Shown: piece by piece, positions 1,809 through 21,688 of the stretch
How the letters are laid out: every line of letters starts with the position of its first letter
How positions within the stretch are numbered: the first letter of the stretch is position 1
NCBI GenBank assembly: GCA_036338595.1
Contig: JAYZBV010000023.1
Span: forward strand, 1-21,694
Reading direction: 5' to 3'
DNA from: Planctomycetota bacterium
GTDB taxonomy: Bacteria; Planctomycetota; UBA8108; UBA1146
Length of the DNA stretch: 21,694 bases
Notes under the pieces: model-generated
Told to the model about the DNA's origin: nothing
What the model saw: the letters and a program-made list of their open reading frames with translations, nothing else
Databases searched by the model: none
Program-made: the position numbers and the translations under genes

Positions 1809-3395
1809 CTAGGGGCAGGCAGCGCTGGTGGTCGGGCAGTCGAGAGTGTTGCCGAGCGGGTCGGCTCCGCAGGTCGGGTAGGGAGCATCCGGAGGGCTAG
1901 AACCGGGCACAAAGAGTGCATTCAACCCGTAGACCATGTCTGCGATGTTGAAGCTGCCATCGTCGTTGATATCGCAACTCTCGATGCAATCGGGAGTCAC
2001 CCCTCCCGGCACGAACAGCGCATTGAGCCCGAACACGATGTCCGCAACATTGAAACTGCCGTCCTCGTTGCCATCACCGCGGACGAATCGAATCACCGAT
2101 CCAGACGAAGCGTCGTGATAGATCAGGGAATAGGGGGGGACCCCCGGATTCTCGCGATGCTGGTAGGTGATATCGAGGCCGAAGGATGTGTTGTTGAAGG
2201 CGGGATACAGCGTGCCTCGGATGGTCGGATAGATGTAGGCGTGCTGGCCGAGTGTGGTCGGTTGTAGCTGCTCGACGAACTCGAACTCGGGGGATGTGTC
2301 GATTTTTTGTGCCAGCACCAGTGCGCCTTCGTTGGCGAGGTCCCGGTACACGGCATGGACGGTGCCCGAAGTCTCGTCACAGCCGATATTGAAGATCTTG
2401 TAACTGGCGATGCCAGTGAACTGGTCGCTACTGGCGTCGAACAGAGATGTCTCGTCACTCCAGCCATTGATCTCATCCCACTTGCGGTAGCGGAAACTCC
2501 ACAGCGGCGAGGCGGAGGCGGCGTCGACGACATAGGCACAGTGGACACTGCCGAGCGCATCGCTCGAGAGCCACCCGAAGTAGTCATTGCTGCCGGCGGT
2601 ATCGCCGAGCACGACGGTATCCAGCTGCCAGCCGCTGGTCGGATCGTAGATGCGGTGCTCGTACAGTCCCGGTGGGATGTTGCGGTAGAAACTGCAATGG
2701 ATCCGTCCGCTGCCATCGACCGCCAGACGCGTGTTCTGGGCACTGGCCGAGGGACTGAAGGCCCCCATGTCGGTGAAGGAATCATCGGCAGCGTAGGGTT
2801 GATCACTTCGTAGCAGGTGCTCGACCCAGCTGGAGGGGTGGTGCCCCGAGATCCATACCGTGTTGTTGCCATCGATGACGATGTCCATCGCCGAGGTACG
2901 GGCATTGAGTGGGGCACCAGTGATGGTGCTGATCTCGATGATGTCGGACCGGTCGCCGGTGGCGGGATCGAAGCGGCGGTAAAACTGCCGGAAGTACGAC
3001 GGGTAGGTGTACCGACCCCATAGTACATGCAGGATTCCCTGGTCGTCGATGGCCACCGAGCACTGGCTGGCGGGATCCGGATCGAACAGACCACTGTCGT
3101 CGTCGTTGAGATTGGGCGGCTGGGTAGACCAGGTGGCGCCTCCATCGGAGGAACTCTGGACAATCAGCGTCATCTCGTCGGCGGCATTTCGTTCCAGCGA
3201 GACACAGTGAAGCACGCCATCGCCATCACGAACCATGTTGTGTGAGGTATTCGATCCCGACGATGCCATCTCGTCGCTGTGCAGGATCACCTGAGCCGAG
3301 GCTGTCACGCTGCAGCAGAGCAGCAGCATCGATGCAAGAATGTTTACGATGGCAGCCTTGGGTTGCTGATAATGGTCCATTCGCTCTCTTCTCAT
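1809..3395 (-). CDS. Secreted beta-propeller (BNR/Asp-box) protein with C-terminal dockerin-like domain
   Basis: Signal peptide ending ..SVTASAQ and Asp-box SSDGGATW. Repeated blade motifs: VAIDDQGILHVLW, IVIDGNNTVW, LAVDGSGRIHCSF, SSDALGSVHCAY, GCDETSGTVHAVY. Tail FVRGDGNEDG..DINDDG..CGADP..CP. The ATG overlaps the upstream stop (TGATG); the ATG near 3380 is an alternative start. Confidence 0.8.
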   Translation of the reverse strand: MRRERMDHYQQPKAAIVNILASMLLLCCSVTASAQVILHSDEMASSGSNTSHNMVRDGDGVLHCVSLERNAADEMTLIVQSSSDGGATWSTQPPNLNDDDSGLFDPDPASQCSVAIDDQGILHVLWGRYTYPSYFRQFYRRFDPATGDRSDIIEISTITGAPLNARTSAMDIVIDGNNTVWISGHHPSSWVEHLLRSDQPYAADDSFTDMGAFSPSASAQNTRLAVDGSGRIHCSFYRNIPPGLYEHRIYDPTSGWQLDTVVLGDTAGSNDYFGWLSSDALGSVHCAYVVDAASASPLWSFRYRKWDEINGWSDETSLFDASSDQFTGIASYKIFNIGCDETSGTVHAVYRDLANEGALVLAQKIDTSPEFEFVEQLQPTTLGQHAYIYPTIRGTLYPAFNNTSFGLDITYQHRENPGVPPYSLIYHDASSGSVIRFVRGDGNEDGSFNVADIVFGLNALFVPGGVTPDCIESCDINDDGSFNIADMVYGLNALFVPGSSPPDAPYPTCGADPLGNTLDCPTTSAACP

Positions 3396-5788
3396 CAGGG
3401 ACAGGCCAGATACAGCGCGCAGTCGAACGCGTCATCGGTCGGATCCTCGCCACAATCAAGCGCACCCGGAGGCGGCGGGTTCCCCGACCCGGGGACAAAG
3501 AGCGCATTGAGTAGAAACACCGCATCGGCAACATTGCTGCCGCCGTCGTCGTTGACATCTGAACTGTCGAAGCAATCCGGCTGTGGTGAACCGGGTACGA
3601 ACAAGGCATTGAGCAGGCGGATCGCATCGGCGATGTTGACGCCGCCATCGCCGTTGACATCGCCACGACGGAAGATCTCCGGTGGCGGTCCGCTACTGGC
3701 TCCCAGCGCCAGCAGGTAGAGTCCCATCAGGGTCTCCTGATCACCGCCGTAGCCGCCGAACTCCCACGATTGAGCGATCACCTCGCCAAATGGATCGTCG
3801 GTCTCGTAGTAGTTTCCGGTGCTGTATCCGATGCCTGACTGGAGCCAGATCGATCCGCTCGAGATGCCCGCAGCATCGGGTGTCAGGGGATCCGCAGAGA
3901 CCAACTGGTCGGTCCAGTCGAGTCCAACCTGGTCCTGATTGTAGACAGCGTCCATGCCGGTCAGATCGAGCACGGAGTAGGAACCGCCGATCATCTCCTG
4001 AAAGGAGTCATCGCCGTCCACGATGGGACTGGCGATGCCGTCAAAATCTGCGAGTGCGGTCTGGCCACAGAATCCCCACACATCGCCACCTTCGATGTAG
4101 ACATCGATGCCATTGGCGATCAGGTCAGCCAGTAACTGCCCCTCTGCCGCGCTCAGGCAGTGATAATCGGGGTAGGTGCCGGTGGCGACCCAGACTCGTT
4201 CGAGTGAAGGTGTATTGAGCAGGCAGTCGCAACTGAGGATATCCGGCATCACCGCCGGGGCGAGACCGTTGAGCACCAGCGCCTCGGCGATGGCGAACAC
4301 CGAATCGATCTGTCCACCGCTTCCTTCCGCTGCCCAGATCACATCGACGGCGTTGACCAGGGCCCAGATGCTGTCGCTGTCGATGACGCAGCAAGGTGTG
4401 ACGGCATCATCCCAGCATCTCAAACTGTACTGGTAGGATGCGGCTCCACCAGGCAGCACATCGGTCCACTGCTGATCACTTCCCGGCAAGGTTGCGGCGA
4501 GCGATCCATCGCGATACACGTCGATGCTGGTGTAGAGGTTTCCGTTGAGATCCCAGCTGAGGGTGACCTCGCTGCCGTTGGTCGCGGTAGCGAAATTCAG
4601 TGGCGGGGTCAGTTGACAGGGGGGACCGCTTCTGTGGTGGATGGACCACCCATCTAGATCGCCAAACTCTGCACCGGCGTAGTCGGCCACGGTCAGACGC
4701 CAGTCACCATCCATCGGAAATCCCGCAAGGTCTGCGAGCACACCCGGACCCTGAGGTTGCATGTGGATGTAGAGTGGGATCTGGTCCTCGTCGAAGGGGA
4801 TTCCCTGATCATCGAAGACGGTGTGTATGTGATTCACATCACTGGGAGATCCTGCGATGTACTGCTTCAGGGTCACCATGGTGGCGGACGGGTGCATGAT
4901 GTCGATCCCGACTTCACGTGTCCATGTGTGAGTTATGTGCACCTCGATATCGACATCCTGGATCAGGTAGTTGTCGGTGATGTTGATGACCGAGGTCACG
5001 CCAAGAGGAGCGCTGTTGGGAATCGGCAGCGGGGTGTCTGTACTGCTGTAGATGTCAAACCCGTGCGAGAGTTGCTCGGTGTCAGTGAAATCAAAGCAAG
5101 CTCCGTCGGAGACCACGATCATGTAATTGTAGAGTCCCTGGCAAATCCCGGCGTCGGTCCAGCTGGTCGCTGCTGGGTCAGCAACATCCTGGTAGTAGGC
5201 ACCACCTCGCCAGATCTGAAATGTATCGGTGTAGGGGCCATTGTTGGTGAACTCCAGCGTGATATCCGGTCCCACGGATGTGGCGACCACCGAGTCTGGG
5301 GCGGTGACCCCGCATGGCTCCAGTTCGACAACGCCGTAGGTGCTGACATTATTCGTGCCTTCGTTGATGTCGTTCCACAGAAATGGATCGGCTTCGAGGG
5401 TGTGGCCCATGTCCTCATTGTTTGAGTTATTGGGTTCACCGGCGTTCCAGTCGGTGTACACGACAGGTTCGCCGTTGGTCCACTCGAACACACCTTCCAC
5501 TGCGATGTCATTGAGACCCAACCACAGGCGACGACCGGTGCCACCAAACACACTGAAGTTCTCGTGGATGAATTCCATCTCCAGTTGATCGCCCACCGCA
5601 ACGAGGTTTCCGCCCCAACTGCTGGCAAGGTTCTCGGCGGTGGTCCAGTCACTCGCCTCGAGTAGCAGGTAGTGGTGATCGTCGAGGGGGCTGGAGATGC
5701 TGGTCAAGATGCCTGGATCCTGAGCCTGTATAGGAGTGGTCCAGAGCAATAGCAACAGCGACGGAAGAAGATATGGACGACGGGACAC
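3395..5788 (-). CDS. Secreted modular protein: C-type lectin + FN3/Ig-like + proprotein-convertase P domain + FN3-like + unknown domain + dockerin-like tail
   Basis: GTG 5788 follows RBS GAGGAGGT; signal peptide. CTL motifs LWLGLND..EGVFEWTNG..W..GEPNN and WND. P-domain motifs DVDIEVHITHTW and GDWRLTVAD..GDLDGWSI. Tail FRRGDVNGDG. Confidence 0.85.
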   Translation of the reverse strand: MSRRPYLLPSLLLLLWTTPIQAQDPGILTSISSPLDDHHYLLLEASDWTTAENLASSWGGNLVAVGDQLEMEFIHENFSVFGGTGRRLWLGLNDIAVEGVFEWTNGEPVVYTDWNAGEPNNSNNEDMGHTLEADPFLWNDINEGTNNVSTYGVVELEPCGVTAPDSVVATSVGPDITLEFTNNGPYTDTFQIWRGGAYYQDVADPAATSWTDAGICQGLYNYMIVVSDGACFDFTDTEQLSHGFDIYSSTDTPLPIPNSAPLGVTSVINITDNYLIQDVDIEVHITHTWTREVGIDIMHPSATMVTLKQYIAGSPSDVNHIHTVFDDQGIPFDEDQIPLYIHMQPQGPGVLADLAGFPMDGDWRLTVADYAGAEFGDLDGWSIHHRSGPPCQLTPPLNFATATNGSEVTLSWDLNGNLYTSIDVYRDGSLAATLPGSDQQWTDVLPGGAASYQYSLRCWDDAVTPCCVIDSDSIWALVNAVDVIWAAEGSGGQIDSVFAIAEALVLNGLAPAVMPDILSCDCLLNTPSLERVWVATGTYPDYHCLSAAEGQLLADLIANGIDVYIEGGDVWGFCGQTALADFDGIASPIVDGDDSFQEMIGGSYSVLDLTGMDAVYNQDQVGLDWTDQLVSADPLTPDAAGISSGSIWLQSGIGYSTGNYYETDDPFGEVIAQSWEFGGYGGDQETLMGLYLLALGASSGPPPEIFRRGDVNGDGGVNIADAIRLLNALFVPGSPQPDCFDSSDVNDDGGSNVADAVFLLNALFVPGSGNPPPPGALDCGEDPTDDAFDCALYLACP

Positions 5789-5906
5789 AACACCTCCTCG
5801 GTGATCTGAGATGGAAGGATCGAAGATCAGAGCCATCGACTATTTTCCCCTGCAAGTGCCAGGATACAAGTGTCGAGTCAGGCTACTGAGAGACCGAGAA
5901 GGGCAA

Positions 5907-6829: not shown

Positions 6830-9800
6830 TCAGGGGCAACTGGTGAAGGTGGCACAGTCGAGCACGGAGCCCGCTGGATCCTGACCGCAGGTAGGGAAGG
6901 GGTCATCGGGTACCAGTCCACCTGAAAATAGATACGAGAGTAAGAAGATGGCGTCTGCAATGTCGATCATGTCATCGTTGTTGGCGTCGGCAGAGGCTTC
7001 GCAAGCAACAGCGCCACCGTCGAACAAGTAGTCAAGACTGGATACCGCATCGCTGATGTCATGCATCCCGTCAGTATTGACATCGCCACGCACCCAATCC
7101 TGAACAAAGCACTCATCCGGTTCTCCGTCACCGTTATTGTCGGTGCTAGTACCGTTTGCGATGTCGCAGGAATCAGGAATCGCATTGCCATTGCAGTCGT
7201 CAGCAGTCCCCTCAGCAACATCGCAGACATCGAGCGTTCCGCTCGTATCGCAATCGCTGGAAGGATCATCATTGATCTGACAGACATCGAGTTGACCGTT
7301 GAGATCACAGTCAATTGCTCCAGCGATGAGATCACAGGAGTCGTCTTGCCCGTTGCCATCGCAATCAGAACCCGCTGTCTGGTCCACATCGCAATCGTTG
7401 GGAATGCCATCTCCGTCGATATCGTCATCGCAATCATCGATGGTGCCATCGGCATCGGTGTCGGGCTCACAGGAATCAGGGATCGTATCCCGGTCACAAT
7501 CGGCGGCTCCGGCGTCGACATCGCAGATGTCTGGAATTCCATTCGCGTTGCAATCCGCTACGGAACCATCGCCAGTAGAGCACTCATCGGGGATTCCATC
7601 GATATCGCAATCAACACTGGTTCCGTTTGCGATGTCCTCTGCATCCGGGATTCCGTTGGTGTTGCAATCCTCAACTCCTGAACAATCGACTTCCTCGATA
7701 CGGAAATCATCGATAGCAGCCTCGATAACCGAACCGCCTCCCAGATCGCTTGCAATGAAGCGCACCTGGACGCTACTAGAAAGCAACACGAAGTCAGAGA
7801 CGAGGAAACTGTGTTCGATCCAGCCTCCAGAGGTTCCGGCACCGGCAGGTCCGATCGTCTCTACATCCACCCACGATGAACCGTCATCAGAGATTTCTAC
7901 TTCAAAGATGTCCGCATTGATCGTAGCTCCAATCGAAGCTCCCGTATCGTTGGAATACCAGCGGAAGTAACTGATCTCTGGATGGGAAGAACCGGACAGG
8001 TCCATCACGAATGAATAGAGTGTCGTGGATCCTCCATCGACATCATTCTCACCGAGACTTCCACCGACACTTCCCTGACCGGTGAACCAGCACTGGCTAC
8101 CGGCCGCGGTGTTGTCATCTTCTGGCTGAGCCGCTGTCCCGAGTGGATCTGCACGAACCCAGTTACCGGTGGTTGCATTGTTGGGGCTTGCCACGGCCCA
8201 ACCTGCAGACTGTTCGAAATCGGTGTCCTCGATATTGACTCCGAAGGCACTCAATCCCGGTGCCGGTCCGGCTTCGGGGTAAGAAACCAGTTGCCCGGAA
8301 GAACTCTGAGCCTCGATCCACCAGCCGAATTCACTGTCACAGGAAACGGGCGGGAAAGTCATCTCGTAATTGACACCACCGAGGAAGCTCAGCGCAATCG
8401 ACTCGATACCGGTACCCGTATCGACCATGAGCAGCTCGGTTCCTGCCTGAACGCTCGAACCAGCAATGGGGGTAATGGTGACATCGAAGGAATCGCCACC
8501 GAGCGGGTTGAAGATCGTTGGATCTCCCCCGGGAACTGCAATGATCAGAGCAGCGGTCACGAAGACATTGCAGTTGACCGGGCCGGAGGGCACACCGGCT
8601 TGAGTCCCATTGACTGTGTAAGTATGCGCACCCGGGGCAGGACTTGTATCGGTCCAGGATGTAGAAGAACCGGCGATGGTCGCAACCATGGAGCCGTCAC
8701 GAGTGATTTCGATGGCGTCGTAGACTTCGCCATTGGTCCAACCCAGATCGACCTGCTCCCCTACCTGAGCGCACGAAAGATCCGAAACGCCCGGGAGAAA
8801 ATCACCACTCGGTGCCATGACGGGGAAAGTGACCGAATCAGGCTGACCGGCGACCGGCTTGAACAGTCCGAGCGTGGCGGTGTTCGGATCGGGGGGTGCA
8901 TTACAGGTGAAGTAGAAGTTGTACATCGTCGACCAGCGAAGTGCGTTGGCATCCGGATCTTCGGCATAGGAATCGGTCGACCAGGTGATTCCCACTCCCG
9001 GATTTTCGGTGACTTGCCAGTCGATTCCGGAATGTGGCTCACCACTGTGCCAGGTGATGTCATGGAAACCATGACTGAGGATGGTGGCACCGCCAGGAAA
9101 AGGCACCATGAAACTGCGGGCGGAACGGTCCGAATACATGTTGTAGACCGCATACTCGTAGTTCCAGGTACCATCACCATTGGCGGTCACATCGTAACCT
9201 GCGATGAACAGCCCCTCGTTCGGTACCTGGACATCGACGAGGGTGACGGTCGGTTGGTTGTCCTGCCACGCCTGAATTCCAGGCTCCATCATCTGCGTGC
9301 CCCCGACAAAACTGAGGTTGTGCGACCCGGTCTGGGAGACGTTGACACGGCGATAGGAGGCGTTGTTGGCTTGATTTCCGAAGGTTGCATCATCCTGAGC
9401 GACGTACTGCCCACTGACAAAGTAAAGGGCTCCCGGAAAGTTTGCGGAGAGAAGATCGGATTCCTTGACCTGCATGCGCCGACCGATGTTTCCCTGGCCA
9501 GAGGGAACAGGAGGTGCCGAATAAGGAAAAGGGAATACTCCGGTCCAGGCATCCACCTGTGACCGAGGTCCAAGGTTGCCCTGATTGCCATTGAGTCCAG
9601 CAGAATATGGATCGGCACAGCCAGGGGTGAGGTAGCTGAGACAACCTCCTCCACCGTTGCAACCAGAGCAGAGGCCCGTATTCTGCAGCGCGCAGAAGCC
9701 ATGCTTGAGCCACGACGAACCGATCTGGGTAAAACGTCCGTCATGCAATCGGAACATATCCTGGGCGATCACGGGATGCTGGTTGTTAGTGTCGATCCAC

Positions 9801-10015
9801 GACAGATTCGCATTACCTATATTGCACGAGGTTGTAGCAACGGAGTAAGCGTAGATGACTTCTCCATTGACGGTGTTGGAGCCGTATGAATTGGTATTTG
9901 GCAAGTCACCGACGATCACATCGGGTCCCTGTGCTCCCAGATGAACGGAAAAGCCCAGGACCATCGAAAGAGCAACGACAAGATATGCGGATCGCGGAAC
10001 GTATGAAATTTGCAT
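6830..10015 (-). CDS. Large secreted modular protein: lysyl-oxidase-like N-terminal domain, beta-sandwich, FN3-like, MAM/jelly-roll-like domain, Ca-binding DCNxNGxxD repeats, dockerin-like tail
   Basis: RBS AGGAGGA before ATG 10015; signal peptide. The N-terminal ~370 aa are paralogous to the next gene. About 9 Asp/Cys repeats. Tail WVRGDVNTDG...CGQDP...CP. Confidence 0.85.
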   Translation of the reverse strand: MQISYVPRSAYLVVALSMVLGFSVHLGAQGPDVIVGDLPNTNSYGSNTVNGEVIYAYSVATTSCNIGNANLSWIDTNNQHPVIAQDMFRLHDGRFTQIGSSWLKHGFCALQNTGLCSGCNGGGGCLSYLTPGCADPYSAGLNGNQGNLGPRSQVDAWTGVFPFPYSAPPVPSGQGNIGRRMQVKESDLLSANFPGALYFVSGQYVAQDDATFGNQANNASYRRVNVSQTGSHNLSFVGGTQMMEPGIQAWQDNQPTVTLVDVQVPNEGLFIAGYDVTANGDGTWNYEYAVYNMYSDRSARSFMVPFPGGATILSHGFHDITWHSGEPHSGIDWQVTENPGVGITWSTDSYAEDPDANALRWSTMYNFYFTCNAPPDPNTATLGLFKPVAGQPDSVTFPVMAPSGDFLPGVSDLSCAQVGEQVDLGWTNGEVYDAIEITRDGSMVATIAGSSTSWTDTSPAPGAHTYTVNGTQAGVPSGPVNCNVFVTAALIIAVPGGDPTIFNPLGGDSFDVTITPIAGSSVQAGTELLMVDTGTGIESIALSFLGGVNYEMTFPPVSCDSEFGWWIEAQSSSGQLVSYPEAGPAPGLSAFGVNIEDTDFEQSAGWAVASPNNATTGNWVRADPLGTAAQPEDDNTAAGSQCWFTGQGSVGGSLGENDVDGGSTTLYSFVMDLSGSSHPEISYFRWYSNDTGASIGATINADIFEVEISDDGSSWVDVETIGPAGAGTSGGWIEHSFLVSDFVLLSSSVQVRFIASDLGGGSVIEAAIDDFRIEEVDCSGVEDCNTNGIPDAEDIANGTSVDCDIDGIPDECSTGDGSVADCNANGIPDICDVDAGAADCDRDTIPDSCEPDTDADGTIDDCDDDIDGDGIPNDCDVDQTAGSDCDGNGQDDSCDLIAGAIDCDLNGQLDVCQINDDPSSDCDTSGTLDVCDVAEGTADDCNGNAIPDSCDIANGTSTDNNGDGEPDECFVQDWVRGDVNTDGMHDISDAVSSLDYLFDGGAVACEASADANNDDMIDIADAIFLLSYLFSGGLVPDDPFPTCGQDPAGSVLDCATFTSCP

Positions 10016-10193: not shown

Positions 10194-12614
10194 TCAGGGG
10201 CAACTATTGAAGGAGGCACAACCGAGTCCGCCGGGCACATCAGGCCCACAGGCAGGGAACGGCGCCGCCGGATCGGGTCCGGAAGCAAACAGATAACCGA
10301 GCAGGTACACGACATCGGAGATGTCGACCTGGAGATCGCCGTTGTTGTCGAGCGCTGCGAGGCAACTGACGCTGGCTCCTCCGAACTGATATCCCAGTGA
10401 ACTCACCGCATCGCTGATGTCGTGGCTGCCGTCGTTGTTGGTGTCGCCGCGCACATAGGTGGTGGGTCCGCCGCCAGTGCATTCATCCGGGACTCCATCT
10501 CCATCGTTGTCGGTACTGGTTCCTGATGAGATGTCGCACTCGTCGAGGACTCCGTTCGCGTTGCAATCTCCGGCACTGGCGATTTCACAGTCATCATGGA
10601 CTCCGTTGCCGTTGCAATCGGGCATACCTGCGCCGCTGATGGAAACATCCATTCCCCAGTTCAACAGCGATCCAGAGTCTCCACCAAGGTTGTCGATGAT
10701 GGTCAAGGTCCAGTCGCCGATCGCATTTTGATTGTCGAAGGCGGAGAGGGGTGAGGATGGTGCGGTTGTGCCGGCGCCACCATCGTCATCGTAGACGGTG
10801 TTGATGTCATCGGAACTACTGCCTCCCTGGGCGTGAAGGACCACATTGGTCGCCAGGGGATTGCTCAGTGAGATGGTGAGATCACCGATGAAGGTGTGCG
10901 TCAGATTCAAGAGCACGTCGACATCATCCACGGCTCCGAACTGATCGACAGCGATGATCCTCACCACGGGAGGAAGGTTGTCGGCGATGGGAGCGGGTGG
11001 GTTGACGATGTCCTCGTAGGTGAAGATTCCCGCTGCTTCACAGAGATCGAGCACGCCGTTGGCATCGCAATCAAGATCGGGATTGGCATCGATCTGGCAA
11101 CTGTCGAGGACGCTGTTGAAATCGCAGTCAGGTTCTGTTCCCTGGGAGATCTCACAGCTGTCGAGCACCCCATCGAAATCGCAGTCCGCGGCTCCTGAAG
11201 CGATCTGGCAGGTGTCAGGAACCAGGTCCCCGTCACAGTCGAGGGCGCCATTGATCAACTCACAGGCGTCTGCGATTCCATCTGCGTTGCAGTCCTCCTG
11301 GCACTCATCGAGCAGCCCGTTGCCATCGCAATCGGAAGCGCCGTTGGCGATCTCATCGGCATCGGGGATGCCGTTGTTGTTGCAGTCCAGATTGCCAACC
11401 ATCGGTGCCAGCGTTGGCACCAGCAAGGTGTCGCCATTTCCCGGCTGGAAGAGGCCAAGGGTCGCATTGGCAGCGACGGGTGGGGATGTCGTGACGAAGC
11501 GGAAGTTGTACATCGTTCCCCAGTGCAAGGCGTTCGCATCCGGATTCTGGGACAGCGTCTGTGTTTCCCAGCTGATGGCTCCGCCTGCAGTCGAGTTGGT
11601 CCAGTCTGTACCATCGTAGACCTCGGTACTGTGGTACTCGACATCATGAAACCCGATGCTGCTGGCAATCACTCCGAGTAACGGCAGTGAAAAACTCCTC
11701 ACCGAGCGTGTCGAGTCCATGTTGTACAGTGCGTACTCGTACTGCCATTGGTTGGCGCTCTGCTGCGTCACCTTGTAGCCGAGGATCAGCAAACCATCGT
11801 CGCCGTCGGGAATATCGACCAGCGTCACGGTCGGATCACTGTCCTGCCACGCCTGGATTCCAGGCTGCTGGCGCTGGGTCGACCCGAGGAAGTTGATGGC
11901 GTGATTCGAACTGTTCGCAGACACCGAAACCTGGCGGTAACTGGTGTTGTTGTGGTGATTGCCAGCTGCCGCGTCGTCGGGAGTGATGTAATGGCCCTCA
12001 ACGAAGTACAGCGCTCCGCTATTGAGGGAAGGATTCAGGTCGTCGCCATGGACCCGCAAGCGTCGCCAGGTCAGGTCACTGTTACCCGGATCGAGGATCT
12101 GGGGATAGATGAAGCCACCGTGCGCCGGATCGATCACCTCCGAGCGGGCTCCCAGACTGCCCTGAGAACCGTTGAGACTGGCGCCGTAGGGATCGGAGCA
12201 ACCGACGCCCAGACGCGAACCGGTTCCAGAAGATGTGCAGCCGCAGCCACAGGTGTTTCCCTGCAGGGCGGTGAAGCCGTGCTTGAGCCAGCTCATGCCG
12301 ATCTGTTCAAAGGTGCCACCTCTGAGCCGAAACATGTTCTGGCCGATCACCGGGTGTTGGTTGGTGCTGGCGATCCAGTCCAGTTCTGCAGTGCCGATGT
12401 TGCAGGAAGTCGTGCCGACCGAATAGGCGTAGTAGCCGCCGGCACTGCCGTAGTTCTGGGTCCCTGTCAATTCTCCGACGATGACATCCGCGCCGGTACC
12501 ACCGAGACCACCCCCCGGGTTGCACTGGGCAGCGAGCGACATCGACGAAAATACGATGACGGTCGTGCAAAGGATGATTCGAAAACTGCGGATTTGCTGA
12601 TGATACAGAGACAT
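10194..12614 (-). CDS. Paralogous secreted modular protein: lysyl-oxidase-like N-terminal domain, DCNxNG repeats interrupted by a P domain, dockerin-like tail
   Basis: ATG 12614 follows AAAGGGGA; signal peptide MSLYHQQIRSFRIILCTTVIVFSSMSLAAQ. The track's longer start (13115) runs through the tRNA and is rejected. Confidence 0.85.
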   Translation of the reverse strand: MSLYHQQIRSFRIILCTTVIVFSSMSLAAQCNPGGGLGGTGADVIVGELTGTQNYGSAGGYYAYSVGTTSCNIGTAELDWIASTNQHPVIGQNMFRLRGGTFEQIGMSWLKHGFTALQGNTCGCGCTSSGTGSRLGVGCSDPYGASLNGSQGSLGARSEVIDPAHGGFIYPQILDPGNSDLTWRRLRVHGDDLNPSLNSGALYFVEGHYITPDDAAAGNHHNNTSYRQVSVSANSSNHAINFLGSTQRQQPGIQAWQDSDPTVTLVDIPDGDDGLLILGYKVTQQSANQWQYEYALYNMDSTRSVRSFSLPLLGVIASSIGFHDVEYHSTEVYDGTDWTNSTAGGAISWETQTLSQNPDANALHWGTMYNFRFVTTSPPVAANATLGLFQPGNGDTLLVPTLAPMVGNLDCNNNGIPDADEIANGASDCDGNGLLDECQEDCNADGIADACELINGALDCDGDLVPDTCQIASGAADCDFDGVLDSCEISQGTEPDCDFNSVLDSCQIDANPDLDCDANGVLDLCEAAGIFTYEDIVNPPAPIADNLPPVVRIIAVDQFGAVDDVDVLLNLTHTFIGDLTISLSNPLATNVVLHAQGGSSSDDINTVYDDDGGAGTTAPSSPLSAFDNQNAIGDWTLTIIDNLGGDSGSLLNWGMDVSISGAGMPDCNGNGVHDDCEIASAGDCNANGVLDECDISSGTSTDNDGDGVPDECTGGGPTTYVRGDTNNDGSHDISDAVSSLGYQFGGASVSCLAALDNNGDLQVDISDVVYLLGYLFASGPDPAAPFPACGPDVPGGLGCASFNSCP

Positions 12615-12897: not shown

Positions 12898-12927
12898 GGC
12901 CCTGTGGACAGGCGAGTCCACAGGGCC
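12898..12927 (-). terminator. Hairpin downstream of tRNA-Thr
   Basis: Perfect 12-bp stem GGCCCTGTGGAC/GTCCACAGGGCC with a 6-nt loop, 10 nt past the tRNA CCA. The U tract is weak. Confidence 0.65.
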
Positions 12928-12937
12928 TGATGTTTAC

Positions 12938-13013
12938 TGGAGCTGGCGACGGGAGTCGAACCCATGACCTCAGCTTTACGAAAGCTGTGCTCTACCAACT
13001 GAGCTACGCCAGC
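12938..13013 (-). tRNA. tRNA-Thr (anticodon CGT)
   Basis: GCTGGCGTAGCTCAGTTGGTAGAGCACAGCTTTCGTAAAGCTGAGGTCATGGGTTCGACTCCCGTCGCCAGCTCCA: 76 nt, 7-bp acceptor stem, D-loop GG, anticodon loop TTCGTAA, GTTCGA T-loop and encoded CCA. Confidence 0.97.
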
Positions 13014-13124: not shown

Positions 13125-14039
13125 CTAGCGATTCTGCTCCACCTCGGGCAATTCGCTGTGAGGGTGGTCTGCTCTGTGCCGCTCCGAGATCTTCTCACTG
13201 CTGAGGTGGTTGTATACCTGGGTAGTGGCGAGGTGCTTGTGTCCGAGCAGCTCCTGCACCTGTCTCAGGTTGGCACCCCTGTCGAGCAGGTGTGTCGCAT
13301 ACGAGTGCCGCAAGGTGTGAGGACTGGTGCGGCTATCGAGACCCGCCTTGCCGATGTAGCGGTCGAGGATCTTGCGGATCGATCGATCCGAGATGCGATC
13401 GCCAAATCGATTCAACAGCACAGGCAGTGGCTTCCAGATTCCATCTTCTGGTTGCCAGCGAGCGGGGATCGCATCCTGATAGGCAAACAAGGCAATCAAT
13501 GCGTGCTCTCCGATGGGAACGATGCGTTCCTTTCGGCCCTTTCCAAATGCTCTGACGAGTCGCTCATCCCCATCGATGTGTTCCCAGTTCAGGGCGACGA
13601 GTTCGCTGACGCGCAGTCCAGTGCTGTAGAGGATCTCGAGGATCGCTCGATCCCTGAGTCCGCGATAAGTATTGGTCTCTGGCTGGTCGAGAAGTCGTAA
13701 CACTTCCTGGACACTCAGAAAGTGAGGCAAGGCTCTCGGAACTCGGGGAGTGCTCAGTTCGAGAAAGGCACAGCGTCCCTCGATGCGGCCCTGACTGGTG
13801 AGGAAGCGGAAGAAGCCGCGGATCGATGCAAGTTTCCTCGCCACCGTGCTGCGAGAATACCCGACCTCCGCGAAGTGAGCCAACCAGCGGCGCACTTCTG
13901 TATTTTCTTTATTGGCGATCTCGGCGAGGTCAGAGACCTCGAAAAAATCGCGCAGTTGTTCGAGATCTTTGCGGTAGGCCCGGAGAGTTTCCGGGCTCAG
14001 GTTCCGCTCAGACTCGAGGTGCTGCAGGAACGAATCCAT
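13125..14039 (-). CDS. xerC: Tyrosine recombinase XerC
   Basis: 304 aa. N-terminal SAM-like domain (ERNLSPETLRAYRKDL) and RSTVARKLASIRGFFRFL. Catalytic motifs LYSTGLRVSEL, GKGRKER, HTLRHSYATHLL and LLGH...TTQVY. XerD is not fully excluded. Confidence 0.88.
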   Translation of the reverse strand: MDSFLQHLESERNLSPETLRAYRKDLEQLRDFFEVSDLAEIANKENTEVRRWLAHFAEVGYSRSTVARKLASIRGFFRFLTSQGRIEGRCAFLELSTPRVPRALPHFLSVQEVLRLLDQPETNTYRGLRDRAILEILYSTGLRVSELVALNWEHIDGDERLVRAFGKGRKERIVPIGEHALIALFAYQDAIPARWQPEDGIWKPLPVLLNRFGDRISDRSIRKILDRYIGKAGLDSRTSPHTLRHSYATHLLDRGANLRQVQELLGHKHLATTQVYNHLSSEKISERHRADHPHSELPEVEQNR

Positions 14040-14683: not shown

Positions 14684-16144
14684 ATGAGTCGAGACAGATC
14701 GGAGAGTCCCTTCCAGGGGCCACCCTCCTTCGAGGCGATCGATGCGTCGGACCCGGCACAATTCCTGGCCTCGATGGCGCCGACCCGGCAAGGGTTTCTG
14801 CTCGAGAGCGGCTTCGATGTACGAGGCACCGGTCGCTGGCACATCTGCGGAGTGGATCCGATCGGCTCCTTCGAGGCGACGGATGATCTCTGGCACGGCC
14901 AGCAGCTGGGTCTTCCAGCGCAAGAGGGCCGCGGCGATCCCCTCGACGCACTCGATTCCTGGTGGCGCAGCTGGGCGGTAGCGGATGCGACGCCTTCGCA
15001 TCCTGGCCCCTTCCGTGGCGGTGCGATCGGCTGGATCGGTTACGAGGCGGCCGATCGTTTCCACGGTTTGCCACGTCGACCACTCCCCGATGGCCCCGTA
15101 TCTTCCTTCCTCGATGGGATTCCCGATCTGTGCTGGAAGTTGTACGACGAGGTGGTCCTGATCGATGCACTCGAGGGGAGGGCCTGGTTCCTTCATCACA
15201 ACAGAGATGGCTGGCAGCAGCGCAGGTGGTGGCTCGATCCTGAATCAGCCCCGCCCATCTCGGATGCGCCATCGGTCGCGGGCGCTCGCATCATCGAGGC
15301 ATCGCTCGCAGACGGAGACTACCTGGATGCCGTTTCGCACATCCGAGCAAGTATCGGGCGGGGGGATGTCTACGAGGTGAACCTTGCCCTGGGCATGATT
15401 CTCGATCGGGTTCCATCGGCGAGGGATCTTCATGCCATCTGGCGCCAGGTGCAGCCGGTACCGTACGCAGCGATGATCCAGGGCGATCCCTTCTCGCTGG
15501 TGTCTGCATCTCCCGAGCAGTTTCTGACACGGCGTGCAGATCAGATCGGGACCCGGCCCATCAAGGGAACGGTGCCCAGATGCGGGGATCCAGCGCAGGA
15601 TCAGATGGCCGCGCAGCGACTGCTGGAAGATCCGAAGGAACGAGCGGAGTTGGCGATGATCGTCGACCTGGAGAGAAACGATCTGGGTCGAATCTGCGTG
15701 CCGGGCAGTGTCGAGGTGGTCGCCGCTGCCGAGGTGGAGGAATACGCATCGGTGATGCACACCGTGGCGACGGTGAAGGGAACACTACGAGGAAATCCGG
15801 GACCGGGAGAGATCCTGCGAGCGACCTTTCCGGGTGGCTCCATCACCGGCGCACCGAAACGGGCCGCGATGGAGCAGATCCGGCAACTGGAACCGTGGCC
15901 CCGCTCGGTCTACACCGGTTCGATCGGCTGGATCGCTCCCTCGGGAGACATGGAACTGAACATAGCGATCCGTACCGCATTGATCCGAGGCGAGCGGGCG
16001 CTGGTCCCCTTTGGCGGTGCCGTGACGTGGGACTCTGATCCGGATGCGGAGCGCGATGAACTGGCTCATAAAGCGCGCACGATGCTGGCCGCTCTGGGCA
16101 TCGATGCGGTCGAGATGGGCGCACCCCGAGATCTGGCAGACTAA
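14684..16144 (+). CDS. pabB: Aminodeoxychorismate synthase component I
   Basis: Chorismate-binding motifs LLES, FRGGAIGWIGYE, GDVYEVNL, SASPEQFL, ELAMIVDLERNDLGR, FPGGSITGAPK, YTGSIG and NIAIRT. PIKGT (Lys) indicates PabB; TrpE has PIAGT. Confidence 0.9.
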   Translation: MSRDRSESPFQGPPSFEAIDASDPAQFLASMAPTRQGFLLESGFDVRGTGRWHICGVDPIGSFEATDDLWHGQQLGLPAQEGRGDPLDALDSWWRSWAVADATPSHPGPFRGGAIGWIGYEAADRFHGLPRRPLPDGPVSSFLDGIPDLCWKLYDEVVLIDALEGRAWFLHHNRDGWQQRRWWLDPESAPPISDAPSVAGARIIEASLADGDYLDAVSHIRASIGRGDVYEVNLALGMILDRVPSARDLHAIWRQVQPVPYAAMIQGDPFSLVSASPEQFLTRRADQIGTRPIKGTVPRCGDPAQDQMAAQRLLEDPKERAELAMIVDLERNDLGRICVPGSVEVVAAAEVEEYASVMHTVATVKGTLRGNPGPGEILRATFPGGSITGAPKRAAMEQIRQLEPWPRSVYTGSIGWIAPSGDMELNIAIRTALIRGERALVPFGGAVTWDSDPDAERDELAHKARTMLAALGIDAVEMGAPRDLAD

Positions 16145-17823
16145 CCCTCGAGCTGTCGCGCCAACGCTCTCAACATCTGAGCGATCGGCTGCTGGCCTTG
16201 AGCGATGCTGTCGATGCAGAACCAGAGACCGACCATGCTCACCAGGATCGCGGATGCGACGGGGGCCAGACGAAGGAATCTGGATCTCAGCGATCCCCCG
16301 ACGCGATCGAGCCAGCGCTCCTTGCCGACGACCAGAACACAGCCGATGCCGATCAGCATCAATCCGAGTCCGAAGCTGAAGAAGCTGAGCACGACCAGGC
16401 CCAGCAGCAGCGCCTGAAAGTGTGCCGCCACCAGCACGATGGTGAATCCAGCCGGACAGGGCACGATGCCGCCGCTGAATCCGAGCGTCACGAGATCCCG
16501 AAAGCGCACCTCGTCCTTTCCACTCCAGTCTGCAGGAACATGAGAGTGGTCATGCGAGTGCCCGTGGGAATGGTCGTGCGAGTGGTCGTGCGAATGGTCG
16601 TGACCATCTGTTTGGCCATATGCTTTGACCGCCCGCCAGCGGCGGCGCGCGAGAAAGACACCGAACATCGTCAGCAGCGCGCCAGAGCCAAAACTGAAGA
16701 TGGTGGTGAGCCAGTTCTGGTAGGTGGCTGAGGAACTCTTGTCGGTACTCGCCTCGATCAGACCCAGCAGCAACAGACCGAGCAGGAAGATACTGGCGGT
16801 GTGGGCAAAGGTGACCACCATCCCCAGCGTCACGGCATCGCGGATCCTGCCGCGTGTCCCGACGAGGTAGGCGGCCACCATCGTCTTGCCATGCCCGGGA
16901 CCCAGAGCGTGCCCTGCGCCGTAGATGACGGCGAGCAACAGTGCCATCAGAACTTCCCAGAGGGCTGCTTCGCCGAGCACGATCGTCTCGACGATGCCTC
17001 CGATCTGTTCCTCCTCGCCCTTCTCGTCGCTGCCCGGATCCACGGTGGCAGGCAGTGGCCGCGGCCGCACCGGCTCCTGATCAGCGGGGAGTTGGGAGTT
17101 CAAGGGGGGAACAGGTGCAGACACCGCTCTCAATTCCTCGACAGAAGGAGCCGAATCGTTGAAGGGATCAAAACTGGTGGAGCCTTGAAAGAAGTAGAGG
17201 ATCGATGTTCTGCCGGGGGTTCGGATGAAGGCGCCCTGATCCTCGAATGTTTCTGGTCTGGGATCGAGAATGAAGAAGGAGAGGTCGTCGTCGTGATCCT
17301 CCACCGGGATCCAGCTGAACTGACTCGAAGTTTGATCGAGAAAGGTGCCATCTCGCCAGTGAAGCCACCAGCCACCGCCGAGGGGACTCTCTGGCGACAA
17401 CATCTCGGGTAGTTTTCCACTCAGCGTGAAGTAGGCATCGAAGGGGCGCGCTCGTACCGATCCCTGCAGCCCCGCCTGTTCGATCAGCGCCAGTTCCAGT
17501 GTGACCCTGTGGCCATTGACGCGCAGGTCGAGGAGCGGCAACAGCGCATCCATCTGCGCCTCGAGGTAGGGTCTCCACTCATCTTCCTCGACTCGTTCGT
17601 CTCCATCGGCATCCAGATCGGCCAGCACGGGAAATCCCGCAGGCACACTCCAGCCCAGATTGAACAGGATCGTCACCTGGCCATCTCGGACGGTGAAGGT
17701 GGTCTGGGTGCCGACTCCGGCGACCAACTCATGAGCGAACCCGGGTGTCGTCGCACTGCCGCAGGTCAGAAGCACCATGACGAATCCACCGAGGAGCCTG
17801 GCAATTGATCGTTGGCTCAACAT
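16141..17823 (-). CDS. rcnA: RcnA/NicO-family nickel/cobalt transporter with extra N-terminal extracytoplasmic domain
   Basis: GAGHALGPGHGKTMVAAYLVG, TFAHTASIF, His-rich loop and GIVPCP. Preceded by a signal peptide and ~250 aa of soluble sequence. Start is 17823 or 17832 and overlaps the uvrD stop. Confidence 0.8.
   Translation of the reverse strand: MLSQRSIARLLGGFVMVLLTCGSATTPGFAHELVAGVGTQTTFTVRDGQVTILFNLGWSVPAGFPVLADLDADGDERVEEDEWRPYLEAQMDALLPLLDLRVNGHRVTLELALIEQAGLQGSVRARPFDAYFTLSGKLPEMLSPESPLGGGWWLHWRDGTFLDQTSSQFSWIPVEDHDDDLSFFILDPRPETFEDQGAFIRTPGRTSILYFFQGSTSFDPFNDSAPSVEELRAVSAPVPPLNSQLPADQEPVRPRPLPATVDPGSDEKGEEEQIGGIVETIVLGEAALWEVLMALLLAVIYGAGHALGPGHGKTMVAAYLVGTRGRIRDAVTLGMVVTFAHTASIFLLGLLLLGLIEASTDKSSSATYQNWLTTIFSFGSGALLTMFGVFLARRRWRAVKAYGQTDGHDHSHDHSHDHSHGHSHDHSHVPADWSGKDEVRFRDLVTLGFSGGIVPCPAGFTIVLVAAHFQALLLGLVVLSFFSFGLGLMLIGIGCVLVVGKERWLDRVGGSLRSRFLRLAPVASAILVSMVGLWFCIDSIAQGQQPIAQMLRALARQLEG
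16540..16602 (-). repeat. 12-bp-period coding repeat, HDHS x5 (11 His in 21 aa)
   Basis: Encodes HDHSHDHSHDHSHGHSHDHSH; units vary at synonymous positions. Confidence 0.9.
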
Positions 17824-20087
17824 GGTTCCCATTCTTCATCCGGGGGCGAGATCGGTGTCACGGGAGCGTATCCGACCACCAACTGTTTCTCGCCACACTC
17901 CTCGAATCGTACCGAGATTCGCTTCGAGGCTCCATGTCCCTGCGCCCGTACGATGATGCCACGGCCGAGAATCTCATGGCGAATCCAGCACCCCGGGTTC
18001 AGACCATCATCTTCATCATCGCCTGCATCTGGCCCATTCCAGTTGGTTTGACCCCAGGTCGAGCTCGACTTCACGAGTGCCTGATCTTGTTCGAAAACGA
18101 TCGAGGTCCCCTCCAGTTCGATCAGGAAGGAGGAGGGAATCCTCGGCTCTCGCTCCTGAAAGCGGCGACGCCAGGAGGCGTGAGTCATCACCAACTGCTC
18201 TCGAGCGCGGGTGACTCCGACGTAGAGCAACCTTCTTTCCTCTTCCACGCCTGCGGCTTCACCGTGGCGCGAGTGGGGGATCAGGGACTCCTCGACTCCA
18301 GCGATGATGACCCTGTCGAATTCGAGACCCTTGGCCGCATGGAGTGTCATCAGCGAGACCTGACCCTTCTCCTCGCTTCGCATCTCTGCATCGGTGACGA
18401 GTGCAATCCTCTCGAGGAACAGCGACATCGGGTCGATCTCCTCGAACTCGGGGTCGTTCACGGCACTGGCGGCGACGCTGGAGAGGATCTCCTGCGTTTC
18501 TGCCGCAGCCGCGACCAGTTCCTCGAGATTGCGTTCGCGCTCCTGCCAGGATTCAGGTTCGGATCTTTCGAGATGCGCCATGTATCCACTCGCCTCGATC
18601 GCAACCGTGACCTGAGCGGAGAGAGGCGCGCCAACATTCTCGGAGAGCCGTTCGATCACGTCTCGCAACTGTTCGAGTCCCTTTTTTGCCTTGCCGCGGA
18701 TCTCTTCGTGGCCATCCAGAGAGCGGAGATGTTCCCCGAGGCTGCGTCCGGCATCTCGAGCAGCGTCCTCGAAGCGTTCGATGCTGACCTTGCCGATGCC
18801 ACGAGCAGGCACATTGATGATGCGTTGAAGGGCCACATCATCGCGAGGCGATCGTGCCACTCGCAGGTACGCAAGGACGTCCTTGACCTCCTTGCGCTCG
18901 TAGAACGACATGCCTCCGACGACGCTGTAGAGGATCCTCCGGCGCACGAACTCCTCCTCGAAGACCCTCGAGAGAGAGTTGACCCGGTAGAGGATGGCCA
19001 TCTCCGAGGCAGAGCAGCCCTCTTCCAGCCAGGCCTCGATGTGAGTGGCGATCTGCGCCGCTTCGGTGCGCTCGTCCCTCAACTGCTGAACTCTCACTTC
19101 GGCTCCGTCGGGGTTTTCGGTGAACAGTTTTCGTTCCCCGAACTCACTGCCGGCGAGTCGCCCCGCAACCTCCAGGATCTGTGGAGTGGATCGGTAGTTC
19201 TGATCGAGCGTGATGACGGAGTGTTCCGGGAAGTCCTCCCGGAATCGTCGGAAGTTGTCGGGACTGGCTCCCCTCCACGAGTAGATCGATTGATCAGGAT
19301 CACCGGTCACGCACAGGTTTCGGTGCTCTTCGGCGAGTAGTTTTGCCATCAGGTATTGCGGACGATTGGTGTCCTGGAACTCGTCTATCATCACGTATTC
19401 GAATCGAGTTCTGAGCCGATCCAGTACATCCGGGTGTTCTCGTAAGAGCCTGACGACGAGGATCAGAAGATCATCGAAATCGGCAGCATCTCGCTCCTCG
19501 AGCAATTCCTGATAACGATAAAAGATGCGTACGAGCTCTTTTTCTCTGAAGGTGGAGGACTCCTCGCTCGCCTGTTCTGGCGAGGTCATGTGGTTTTTCC
19601 AGTGACTGATTCGCGAAAGCGTGGCGCGAGGAGGGAATGAGGTGCGGTCCAGTTTCAGTTCCTTCAGGATCGTACCGATCAGTTGTTGCTGATCGGCACT
19701 GTCGTAGATGGAGAAGCGGCCGCTATAGGGTTCGATCCTGTGCACGTGGCGACGAAGCAGACGGGCACAGAAGGAGTGAAAGGTGCGCAGTACCGGCGTG
19801 CCTTCATCGAGATCGAGAGAGGATGGGCCGAGGAATCCAGAGGTCGGAAACAGCACACCACGACCTGGCCCCAGCAGCGCCATCGTTCGACGAAGCATCT
19901 CATCGGCAGCCTTGTTGGTGAAGGTGATGGCAAGGATCGATCCTGGAGAGACCCCGGCAGCGACGAGGTCGGCGATGCGATGGGTCATCACCCGGGTCTT
20001 GCCGCTGCCCGGGCCGGCGATCACCGCCATCGGCCCCCTGTGGCTGGTGACGGCCTTCTGCTGGCCAGGATTCAATGCCTCGGTCAT
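17817..20087 (-). CDS. uvrD: ATP-dependent SF1 DNA helicase UvrD/PcrA
   Basis: [56 protein letters not shown] and [13 protein letters not shown]. The C-terminal Tudor-like domain ([20 protein letters not shown]) argues against Rep. Confidence 0.95.
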
Positions 20088-20267
20088 CGCTCATTCACCT
20101 TGCTGGAGGCCTTTCGAGGCATCGGTTCGTGAAGCCGGTGGAACTGGCTCTGACGGGGGCACTCGAAGGAAACCGCCCCTCGACCCCGATTGCTGCCGGG
20201 AGCCATGTTGTCCCCGATGGAGGGGAACCGCAAGGTCAGCAACGATCTACATCGATTCCCGTTCGCA

Positions 20268-20296
20268 TTGACGAGATCGGCCCCGTTACTTATGAT
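20268..20296 (+). promoter_or_regulatory. sigma70 promoter of the TPR-alphaCTD gene
   Basis: TTGACG-N17-TATGAT, 5/6 match to consensus in both hexamers. Confidence 0.75.
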
Positions 20297-20407
20297 CCTG
20301 GACTCACTTCCGAACTCCTGGGTACTGGATCCGGCGCTGCCGGGGAGCCCTCATGGAGTGGCAACTGGAGTGGACACCAACGCCTGAGTTCCGTCGAGGA
20401 GGCTTCC

Positions 20408-21688
20408 GTGGATGCAATGAGCGAAATTCCGCTGCGTGATCTGATCCTGACGAGGGAGACCTCGGTCGATTTCTACCACGAGGCTCGCCAGGGAGTGACC
20501 TCCCGACGTGAGGCGATCGATGAACTCGAGGTGATCATCGATGAAATCGAAGATCCATTCCGTCGTGGTGTCGTGCTCGACCTGCTCGGTCGGCGTCCGG
20601 AAGCACGCAAAATGCTGCATAGTTGCAAGGACAATGTCCTGTGCATGCACCTTCTCGGCAAGTTGTTGCTCGAGGAGGGGGATTCTCGCGCAGCACTGGG
20701 CGTGCTGGAGGAAGGGTGGGCCAGCTGCGGAGCGGGCGAGCCCCGCGTTGGAATGTTGCTGTGTGAGGCGTTGATCCTCGAGGACCAGGTGGAGGCTGCA
20801 CAGGATCTACTGCGCAAGTTACCGGTAGAATCGGGCCATCCGAGGATCTGCTATCTCGAAGGGTTGCTGGCCCAGCATGAGGGCGAATATCATCAGGCTC
20901 TTGAATACTACACTACAGCAGCTGAAGGCAATCCGGATGAAACGCGCTTTCAGTTCCGTCTCGGCTACATGCATTCGCTTTATGGCCAGGAGGAACGGGC
21001 CATCGAGGCCTATCGGATGTGCCAGCGAAGTACTCCCCTCTACGCCCATGCGATGATCAACCTCGGTGTCCTCTACGAGGATGCGGAGCGCTTCGAGGAG
21101 GCGATCACCTGTTACCGGTTGGTACTCCACTCCAACTCAAACCACGGGCGAGCGCGTCTCTACCTGCGTGATGCCGAGGCGTCCCAATCGATGTACTACG
21201 ATCGGGATAAGGAGAAGGAGAGCGTTCGCAAGCATCAGGTACTTCAAATTCCTGTTACCGAATTCGAACTCTCGGTACGAAGCCGCAATTGTCTTCAGAA
21301 GATGGGGATCCACACCCTTGGTGATCTCGTCAGCAAGAGTGAAGCGGAACTCCTCTCCTACAAGAACTTTGGCGAGACCAGCCTGCAAGAAATCCGCAAG
21401 ATCCTGAACCAGAAGAAACTGCGCCTCGGAGAAGCGGTTCGCAGTGACGACACCTTCCTGCTTTCGGTCGATGGTGAGGCCGCGTCACTTCTGGGAGAAC
21501 CGGTCAGCATTCTTGAACTCTCCAGCAGGAGCCAGCGTTGTATGGACAGGCTCGGAATCGAGACCATCTCTGATCTGATGCAACGAAATGAGCTCGAACT
21601 GGTCAGTCAGAAGAACTTCGGTGTCACCTCCCTCAACGAGGTGAAGCGAAAACTCTCCGATCGCGGGTTGAACCTGGCGAACGGTTAG
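20408..21688 (+). CDS. TPR-repeat protein with two C-terminal RNA polymerase alpha-CTD domains
   Basis: GTG 20408 lies 5 nt after GAGGAGG. TPRs include [20 protein letters not shown] and [22 protein letters not shown]. Alpha-CTDs: [10 protein letters not shown]...[15 protein letters not shown] and [10 protein letters not shown]...[11 protein letters not shown]. There is no alpha-NTD, so this is not rpoA. Confidence 0.88.

Follow-up and report, generated by a model that had tools for sequence, protein, structure and literature searches.

The window analysed here is a stretch of 21,694 nucleotides from a Planctomycetota genome of the UBA1146 lineage (GCA_036338595.1, contig JAYZBV010000023.1). 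Its minus strand carries gene A, whose product has a predicted lysyl oxidase (LOX)-like domain near its N-terminus, and a tandem paralogue, gene B (Table 1). A full-length homologue of gene A at 99–100% was identified by homologue search. Residues are numbered on the full-length protein; the unit P0003 of 377 amino acids (residues 29–405) numbers 28 lower.

Table 1. Features of gene A and paralogue B, with positions in the window.
Feature	Position	Strand	Remarks
Gene A, 1061 amino acids (P0001)	6830..10015	minus	Signal-like N-terminus, LOX-like domain, immunoglobulin (Ig)-like domain, accessory region, dockerin-like tail
Putative signal peptide, residues 1–28	9932..10015	minus	By inspection: basic residue, hydrophobic core, LGA preceding Q29
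LOX-like domain, residues 29–255	9251..9931	minus	Predicted fold
H80	9776..9778	minus	Sole HxHxH remnant, candidate metal ligand; His in 549/556
K104	9704..9706	minus	Equivalent of the cofactor lysine (LOXL2 K653); 549/556
H105	9701..9703	minus	Specific to the family, aligned with LOXL2 A654; candidate for a second metal ligand; His in 548/556
D135-P136-Y137	9605..9613	minus	Y137 equivalent of the cofactor tyrosine (LOXL2 Y689); D 553/556, Y 548/556
Cys-rich loop C108–C133	9617..9694	minus	Couplings; putative disulfides C108–C125, C119–C133, C64–C116
Family-specific insertion, about residues 146–178	9482..9580	minus	Absent from canonical LOX; in the predicted domain interface
D209...N217-N218	9362..9391	minus	With D32 (9920–9922), likely LOX-type calcium site
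Second, Ig-like domain, residues 256–402	8810..9250	minus	Contains H318 and H323; predicted packing on the LOX-like domain
Accessory region	7076..8809	minus	Presumed Ig-like and jelly-roll-like segments, Asp/Cys-rich repeats
Dockerin-like C-terminal tail	6833..7075	minus	Pattern match; Cys-Pro end
Tandem paralogue B, 806 amino acids	10194..12614	minus	P-domain and dockerin-like tail; about 51% identity to gene A within the unit
Paralogue B site residues	H87, K111 (12282–12284), H112, Y143 (12186–12188)	minus	

The initial annotation, drawn by eye, had described a cryptic LOX-like domain that retains the Lys and Tyr from which LOX forms lysine tyrosylquinone (LTQ) and lacks the HxHxH copper cluster. 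The motifs occur in the open reading frame in the order it gave: SCNIG (63–67), NQHP (78–81), WLKHGFCALQ (102–111), LTPGCADPY (129–137), MQVKESDL (181–188), PGALYFV (194–200) and ANN (216–218). Its codon positions for H80, K104 (Table 1) and Y137 (9605–9607) are also correct, as are the spacings of 33 residues from K104 to Y137 and 24 from H80 to K104. This motif set exceeds chance expectation; among the 3489 long stop-to-stop frames in the genome, a loose H..K..F..[CW]xDxY pattern picks out five, every one a family member.

Conservation was assessed in 556 non-redundant units taken from the listed top matches and fetched loci, with partial matches and duplicates excluded (374 plus 136 gave 474, to which 82 of 93 further matches were added); the set is skewed to close relatives and includes 37 members below 37% identity. 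K104, Y137 and H80, whose invariance had been proposed as a check, are near-invariant in it, and W73 is kept in 551 units. The loss of HxHxH was rightly claimed, since 0/556 units contain the motif and 0/556 have a second His at a distance of two residues from H80. Comparison with canonical LOX shows W73 and N142 to be invariants specific to the family, and His is absent at the H105 position from all 17 canonical LOX rows that were parsed.

The Lys and Tyr, which align with the LTQ precursors as claimed, are conserved jointly. Both are kept in 548 of the 556 units and both lost in seven; Tyr alone is lost in one and Lys alone in none, which makes this co-loss the tightest among 190 residue pairs by a p-value that ignores kinship. 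The seven members fall on six branches (parent support 0.05–0.95, above 0.8 for three) of a fast tree computed for 474 sequences with the K104 and Y137 columns left out. Their replacement residues vary, and I83 and Y204 are also lost in six of the seven each, while H80, H105, the four core Cys, the fold residues and the calcium-site residues are retained. Coupling analysis groups I83, K104, Y137 and Y204; the K104–Y137 coupling of 6.2 standard deviations (SD) comes from these seven sequences and adds no independent evidence to the co-loss. Paralogues without the pair stand in tandem with intact copies at two loci (L047:5656–12121 and L045:1–3761), and such paralogues are natural candidates for decoys that bind metal without being active. 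A Lys–Asn isopeptide bond between K104 and N142 was considered and set aside, because N142 is kept in three of the seven Lys-less members and Y137 in none.

Three substitute His ligands had been proposed from the motifs KHG, GFHD and [WY]HS, and only the first, H105, remains a candidate. GFHD (316–319) and WHS (322–324) do exist, but they lie outside the annotated interval, at 9044–9070 in the second domain. Moreover, H318 is His in just 296/465 members, and H323, kept in 395/403 members at 45% identity or above, is found in only 3/37 of the most distant members, which retain H80, K104, H105 and Y137. The coupling between V82 and L103 (6.5 SD) places H80 cross-strand from H105, and the H80–H105 coupling itself reaches 2.9 SD. 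From these couplings, and from the location of LOXL2 A654 in a patch beside Y689 described in PMC9659206, it may be suggested that H80, H105, K104 and Y137 cluster spatially. Small clades with altered His and intact K104 and Y137 also occur: H105Y with H206 (L164, L170, L174, L220), both His lost (L086, L094) and H80Y (L054, L055). A replacement of H105 by H206 was rejected, as the four H105Y members carrying it form one clade and H206 also occurs in 103/548 members with H105.

The first domain is predicted to adopt the LOX fold over its whole length, in agreement with the initial annotation. The listed top Foldseek rows contain no LOX; the human LOXL2 structure 5ZE3 lies within the top 1000 and ranks first after their re-alignment, so the LOXL2 comparison that had been suggested supports the predicted fold. 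Both structure models (from alignments A2 and A1) were built on one 377-residue unit, never on the LOX-like domain alone, and are therefore not independent tests of the sequence. Neither P0001 nor the unit matches the Lysyl oxidase profile PF01186 in Pfam at E ≤ 1, and none of the 46 members of alignment A4 does. Pfam, NCBIfam and PDB sequence searches returned nothing naming residues 29–405, and the ESM Atlas returned only unnamed clusters, with no named match for unit residues 1–200. Matches of the unit to HCV NS5A and Ttg2D were rejected as chance-level.

Canonical LOX domains were gathered from the same phylum, one of which matches 5ZE3 at E 7e-28 and provides a bridge to LOXL2. In the profile–profile alignment with these domains, the NxG motif, K104, F107 and D135-x-Y137 fall on LOX residues (probability 49.9, E 1.7e-4; other runs 7.4 and 6.4). 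When the insertion of 33 residues is removed, the alignment lengthens to 130 columns that take in PG.Y and NN, scores 29.0 and reproduces the original by-eye alignment; this window was picked after the alignment had been inspected, and deleting other windows gives 17–24.7, except where they overlap the insertion. The sequence signal alone is weak and counts jointly with the fold. NxG and H80 are mostly 15 residues apart, compared with at least 25 between NxG and the last His in canonical LOX, and the Lys–Tyr spacing is 30–34 versus 35–43. According to PMC5899467, the ES2 hairpin carries the LOXL2 copper motif, and by the shortened NxG-to-His spacing most of this hairpin is deleted; H80 is the counterpart of either the middle or the last LOX histidine.

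C108 and C125 co-occur strongly among 474 sequences (both in 177, neither in 286, one in 11; 15.9 SD), while the C119–C133 coupling is just 3.3 SD; the LOXL2 counterparts of these putative disulfides would be C657–C673 and C663–C685. C36 substitutes for C64 in 18 of 20 members lacking C64 and in 0 of 536 having it. The swap marks C64 as a probable half of a disulfide, and on this analysis Cys as metal ligands were rejected. The LOXL2 calcium ligands are given as D549, E722, D724, N727 and N728 (PMC5899467), and the family likely retains such a site, as D32 is kept in 535, D/E209 in 556, N217 in 534 and N218 in 546 of the units.

The reading that we prefer, with confidence evenly divided for and against it, is that these proteins are secreted amine oxidases of the LTQ type, with a cofactor formed by K104 and Y137 and copper held on a two-His site of H80 and H105. 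The sequences show that most of the copper-histidine hairpin is deleted, with H80 left behind, and that a new near-invariant His stands directly after the lysine. In this scenario, H80, H105, K104 and Y137 would meet at one end of the sandwich, as the couplings and the proximity of LOXL2 A654 to Y689 suggest. By analogy with LOX, copper and O2 would oxidise Y137, and K104 would add to the oxidised ring. The resulting quinone would deaminate primary amines, the likeliest being lysine side chains in extracellular proteins or peptides, to aldehyde with release of ammonia and H2O2. The dockerin-like tail may tether the protein to the cell surface, and targeting to the substrate may fall to the variable accessory domains.

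Several observations weigh against this reading. In LOXL2, each of the substitutions H626Q, H628Q and H630Q is listed with 0% LTQ and as inactive (Table 3 of PMC9694262), and no third metal ligand was found in the family. H80 or H105 is missing from thirteen of the 556 members, which represent about seven lineages, and two of these have neither His. Since K104 and Y137 are present in all 13, the His pair and the Lys/Tyr pair are not coupled. K104 and H105, being adjacent, would point to opposite faces of a regular strand. The structural match is moderate (root-mean-square deviation 4.5–4.7), and so are the profile scores of 25.1 and 29.0, for which the best among 40 shuffles reached 21.2 and 25.7, respectively; the profile probability falls to 6.4 in one alignment, and the score to 18.8 for a diverse set without trimming. 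No conserved copper-handling, maturase or other helper gene adjoins the family in 80 loci, and heme-c fusions (29/367 homologues) are not commoner than among dockerin-tailed proteins of the same genome (7/69).

Perhaps K104 and Y137 are kept for a non-catalytic purpose, as a stabilising cross-link or packing pair in a LOX-fold binding or scaffold module of surface proteins whose His pair binds a structural metal or ligand. This explanation accommodates the absence of HxHxH from 556/556 units, the 13 members that keep Lys and Tyr without one or both His, the red-algal LOX-like proteins that hold both residues without the His core (as described in PMC6508830 and PMC4448552), and the high copy number per genome combined with diverse accessory domains. 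We nevertheless consider it unlikely: a Lys, a Tyr, an Asp, a Trp and a pair of His that stay near-invariant at identities as low as 26–36% are more typical of an active site, and the seven paralogues without Lys and Tyr keep the fold residues, Cys and calcium-site residues, which means that folding does not require the pair. A repurposed site is conceivable as well, with Fe, Mn or Zn bound by H80, H105 and D135 and with K104 and Y137 serving catalysis (Schiff base, acid/base or radical) without LTQ. In 2-His-1-carboxylate sites, two His plus one carboxylate bind metal, and the family combines two His with a near-invariant Asp two residues before Y137 (553/556), besides its own invariants W73 and N142. 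However, this Asp is invariant in canonical LOX too (D131 in A3) and its presence therefore calls for no new function. In two of the seven paralogues without Lys and Tyr, D135 is lost and both His are retained, and the Lys–Tyr spacing remains near that of LOX. In our judgement, such repurposing is improbable.

The Ig-like domain bears on a further explanation, an ordinary three-His LTQ enzyme whose third His comes from H323 of this domain, a second subunit or a partner protein. The pair of LOX-like and Ig-like domains is modelled with a score of 0.95 against 0.15 for the best control, and the predicted interface list contains W102, the insertion and also H323, which is nearly always kept at 45% identity and above. 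However, H80, K104, H105, D135 and Y137 are all missing from this list (the tool leaves unnamed residues uncertain), and H323 is mostly absent from distant members that keep the other site residues. The best fold matches of the Ig-like domain are copper-binding YcnI-type domains (YcnI/DUF1775; 7ME6, 3ESM), but they are tied with many unrelated Ig folds, including adaptin and pilin, and no YcnI/DUF1775 Pfam match was obtained for the domain at E ≤ 1. The YcnI copper site uses an N-terminal His, which the second domain, being internal, cannot. On conservation and the interface list, a composite three-His site using H323 or H318 was rejected as a family trait; the three-His explanation as a whole appears highly improbable to us, and the Ig-like domain is better seen as a predicted packing partner than as the source of a third ligand.

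The family is large. Unit matches numbered 835 among 3284 candidates of 583–1857 amino acids and 1055 among 1942 shorter candidates, and the first domain alone gave 2157 clusters at 50% identity. Named matches are nearly all from Planctomycetota (Phycisphaerales, UBA1146), with few others, e.g., Acidobacteriota. The homologue P0181 is filed under the dinoflagellate Symbiodinium necroappetens and is likely bacterial contamination. The genome of gene A holds seven copies and no canonical PF01186 domain; among 301 sampled genomes of the phylum, where kin are not independent and genomes are incomplete, the family occurs in 60 (the same 60 with two different queries) and PF01186 in 14. Mutual exclusion of the two was rejected, as three of the 14 LOX genomes also hold the family, which is the chance expectation. 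One planctomycete genome (G125; L011, L015–L018) has five canonical LOX domains within frames of 566–1239 amino acids. A hydrophobic N-terminal stretch was counted, with no control, in 326/351 homologues starting with Met, and the members are likely secreted. We put forward, with slightly less than even confidence, a broader proposal: a second, so far unrecognised class of LTQ quinoenzymes in Planctomycetota, widespread, multi-copy and secreted, which would build the cofactor on a copper site of two cross-strand His after deletion of the canonical hairpin and may outnumber canonical LOX there (60 vs. 14 of 301 genomes).

Accessory parts and surroundings of the family vary. The segments of the gene A accessory region bear presumptive labels based on sequence pattern; Pfam gave nothing above the cut-off there, with one weak galactose-binding-domain match (E 0.099). 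The gene A tail has no Pfam match, while similar tails of its neighbours in the window match Dockerin_1. Tails of this kind ending in Cys-Pro occur on the minus strand at 1809–3395 and 3395–5836 as well as in gene A and paralogue B, all likely secreted, and the pattern is found in 69 frames of the genome. Fusions to GSDH-type propellers and to one to four heme-c motifs (P0051, P0052, P0054, P0120, P0273, P0336) were rejected as evidence of redox function, as CxxCH is not above baseline. About 80 of 367 homologues have 150–260 residues ahead of the LOX-like unit (e.g., P0049, P0050, P0057, P0058, P0067), often an unannotated domain of about 200 amino acids that has no Pfam match in those scanned. 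Gene neighbourhoods show only synteny among close kin, with family reading frames recovered by the filter in 66/80 loci; in eight kin loci (L142–L150), one family member adjoins genes resembling those for alternative complex III subunits. A tRNA-Thr(CGT) gene (12938–13013, minus) and a 12-pair hairpin (12898–12927) separate paralogue B from a XerC-like tyrosine recombinase gene (13125–14039). Gene A, paralogue B and this recombinase gene are each covered in part by RNA-library contigs, which cannot show transcription. Further along the window are a NicO-like transporter (16141–17832), which has a His-rich loop and is extended at length on its N-terminal side, and a TPR protein that contains two C-terminal domains of the RNA polymerase alpha type (20075–21688).

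No description of the family was found in the open-access literature, whose coverage takes in few subscription papers. In the available part of a 2025 cofactor review (PMC11951088), LTQ is listed solely for lysyl oxidase, and no mature-LTQ structure is given as determined. With more than 2,000 clusters at 50% identity, a Lys/Tyr pair under joint selection and two His, the family offers a direct test of the requirements for LTQ formation, in which paralogues without the pair and members without the His serve as natural controls; expression of these small bacterial domains should also be less difficult than that of animal LOX. An active family would represent an unannotated extracellular amine oxidase of uncultured aquatic planctomycetes, releasing ammonia and H2O2 or cross-linking proteins; an inactive one would reveal other uses of the LOX fold with a conserved Lys/Tyr pair.

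Compared with known LOX (PF01186; LOXL2 5ZE3, archaeal HTU-LOX and bacterial LOX), the family shares the predicted beta-sandwich fold of the catalytic domain over its whole length, the motifs PD, NxG, His, KxxF, C/W-x-D-x-Y, PG.Y and NN in corresponding order and spacing, the likely calcium site, two putative disulfides like those of LOX and likely secretion. It differs from LOX in lacking a PF01186 match, in having one His in place of HxHxH and a new His after the Lys, in its invariant W73 and the roughly 33 extra residues that follow the Tyr strand, in the second Ig-like domain of the examined units and in reaching seven or more copies per genome. The prokaryotic LOX described in PMC4448552 and PMC6452851 retain three His. 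As the family lacks both the profile match and HxHxH, we do not file it as a lysyl oxidase member, though by analogy it probably works like one. The LOX-like proteins of the red algae Cyanidium caldarium and Cyanidioschyzon merolae are likewise secreted and keep the LTQ Lys and Tyr in the absence of the His core; in contrast to our family, they are recognisable as LOX by BLAST (about 29% to mammals), and the available text of PMC6508830 and PMC4448552 reports no substitute ligand, whereas the planctomycete proteins have two near-invariant His and are missed by the LOX profile. The algal proteins thus represent a partial precedent for a Lys/Tyr pair maintained without the His core.
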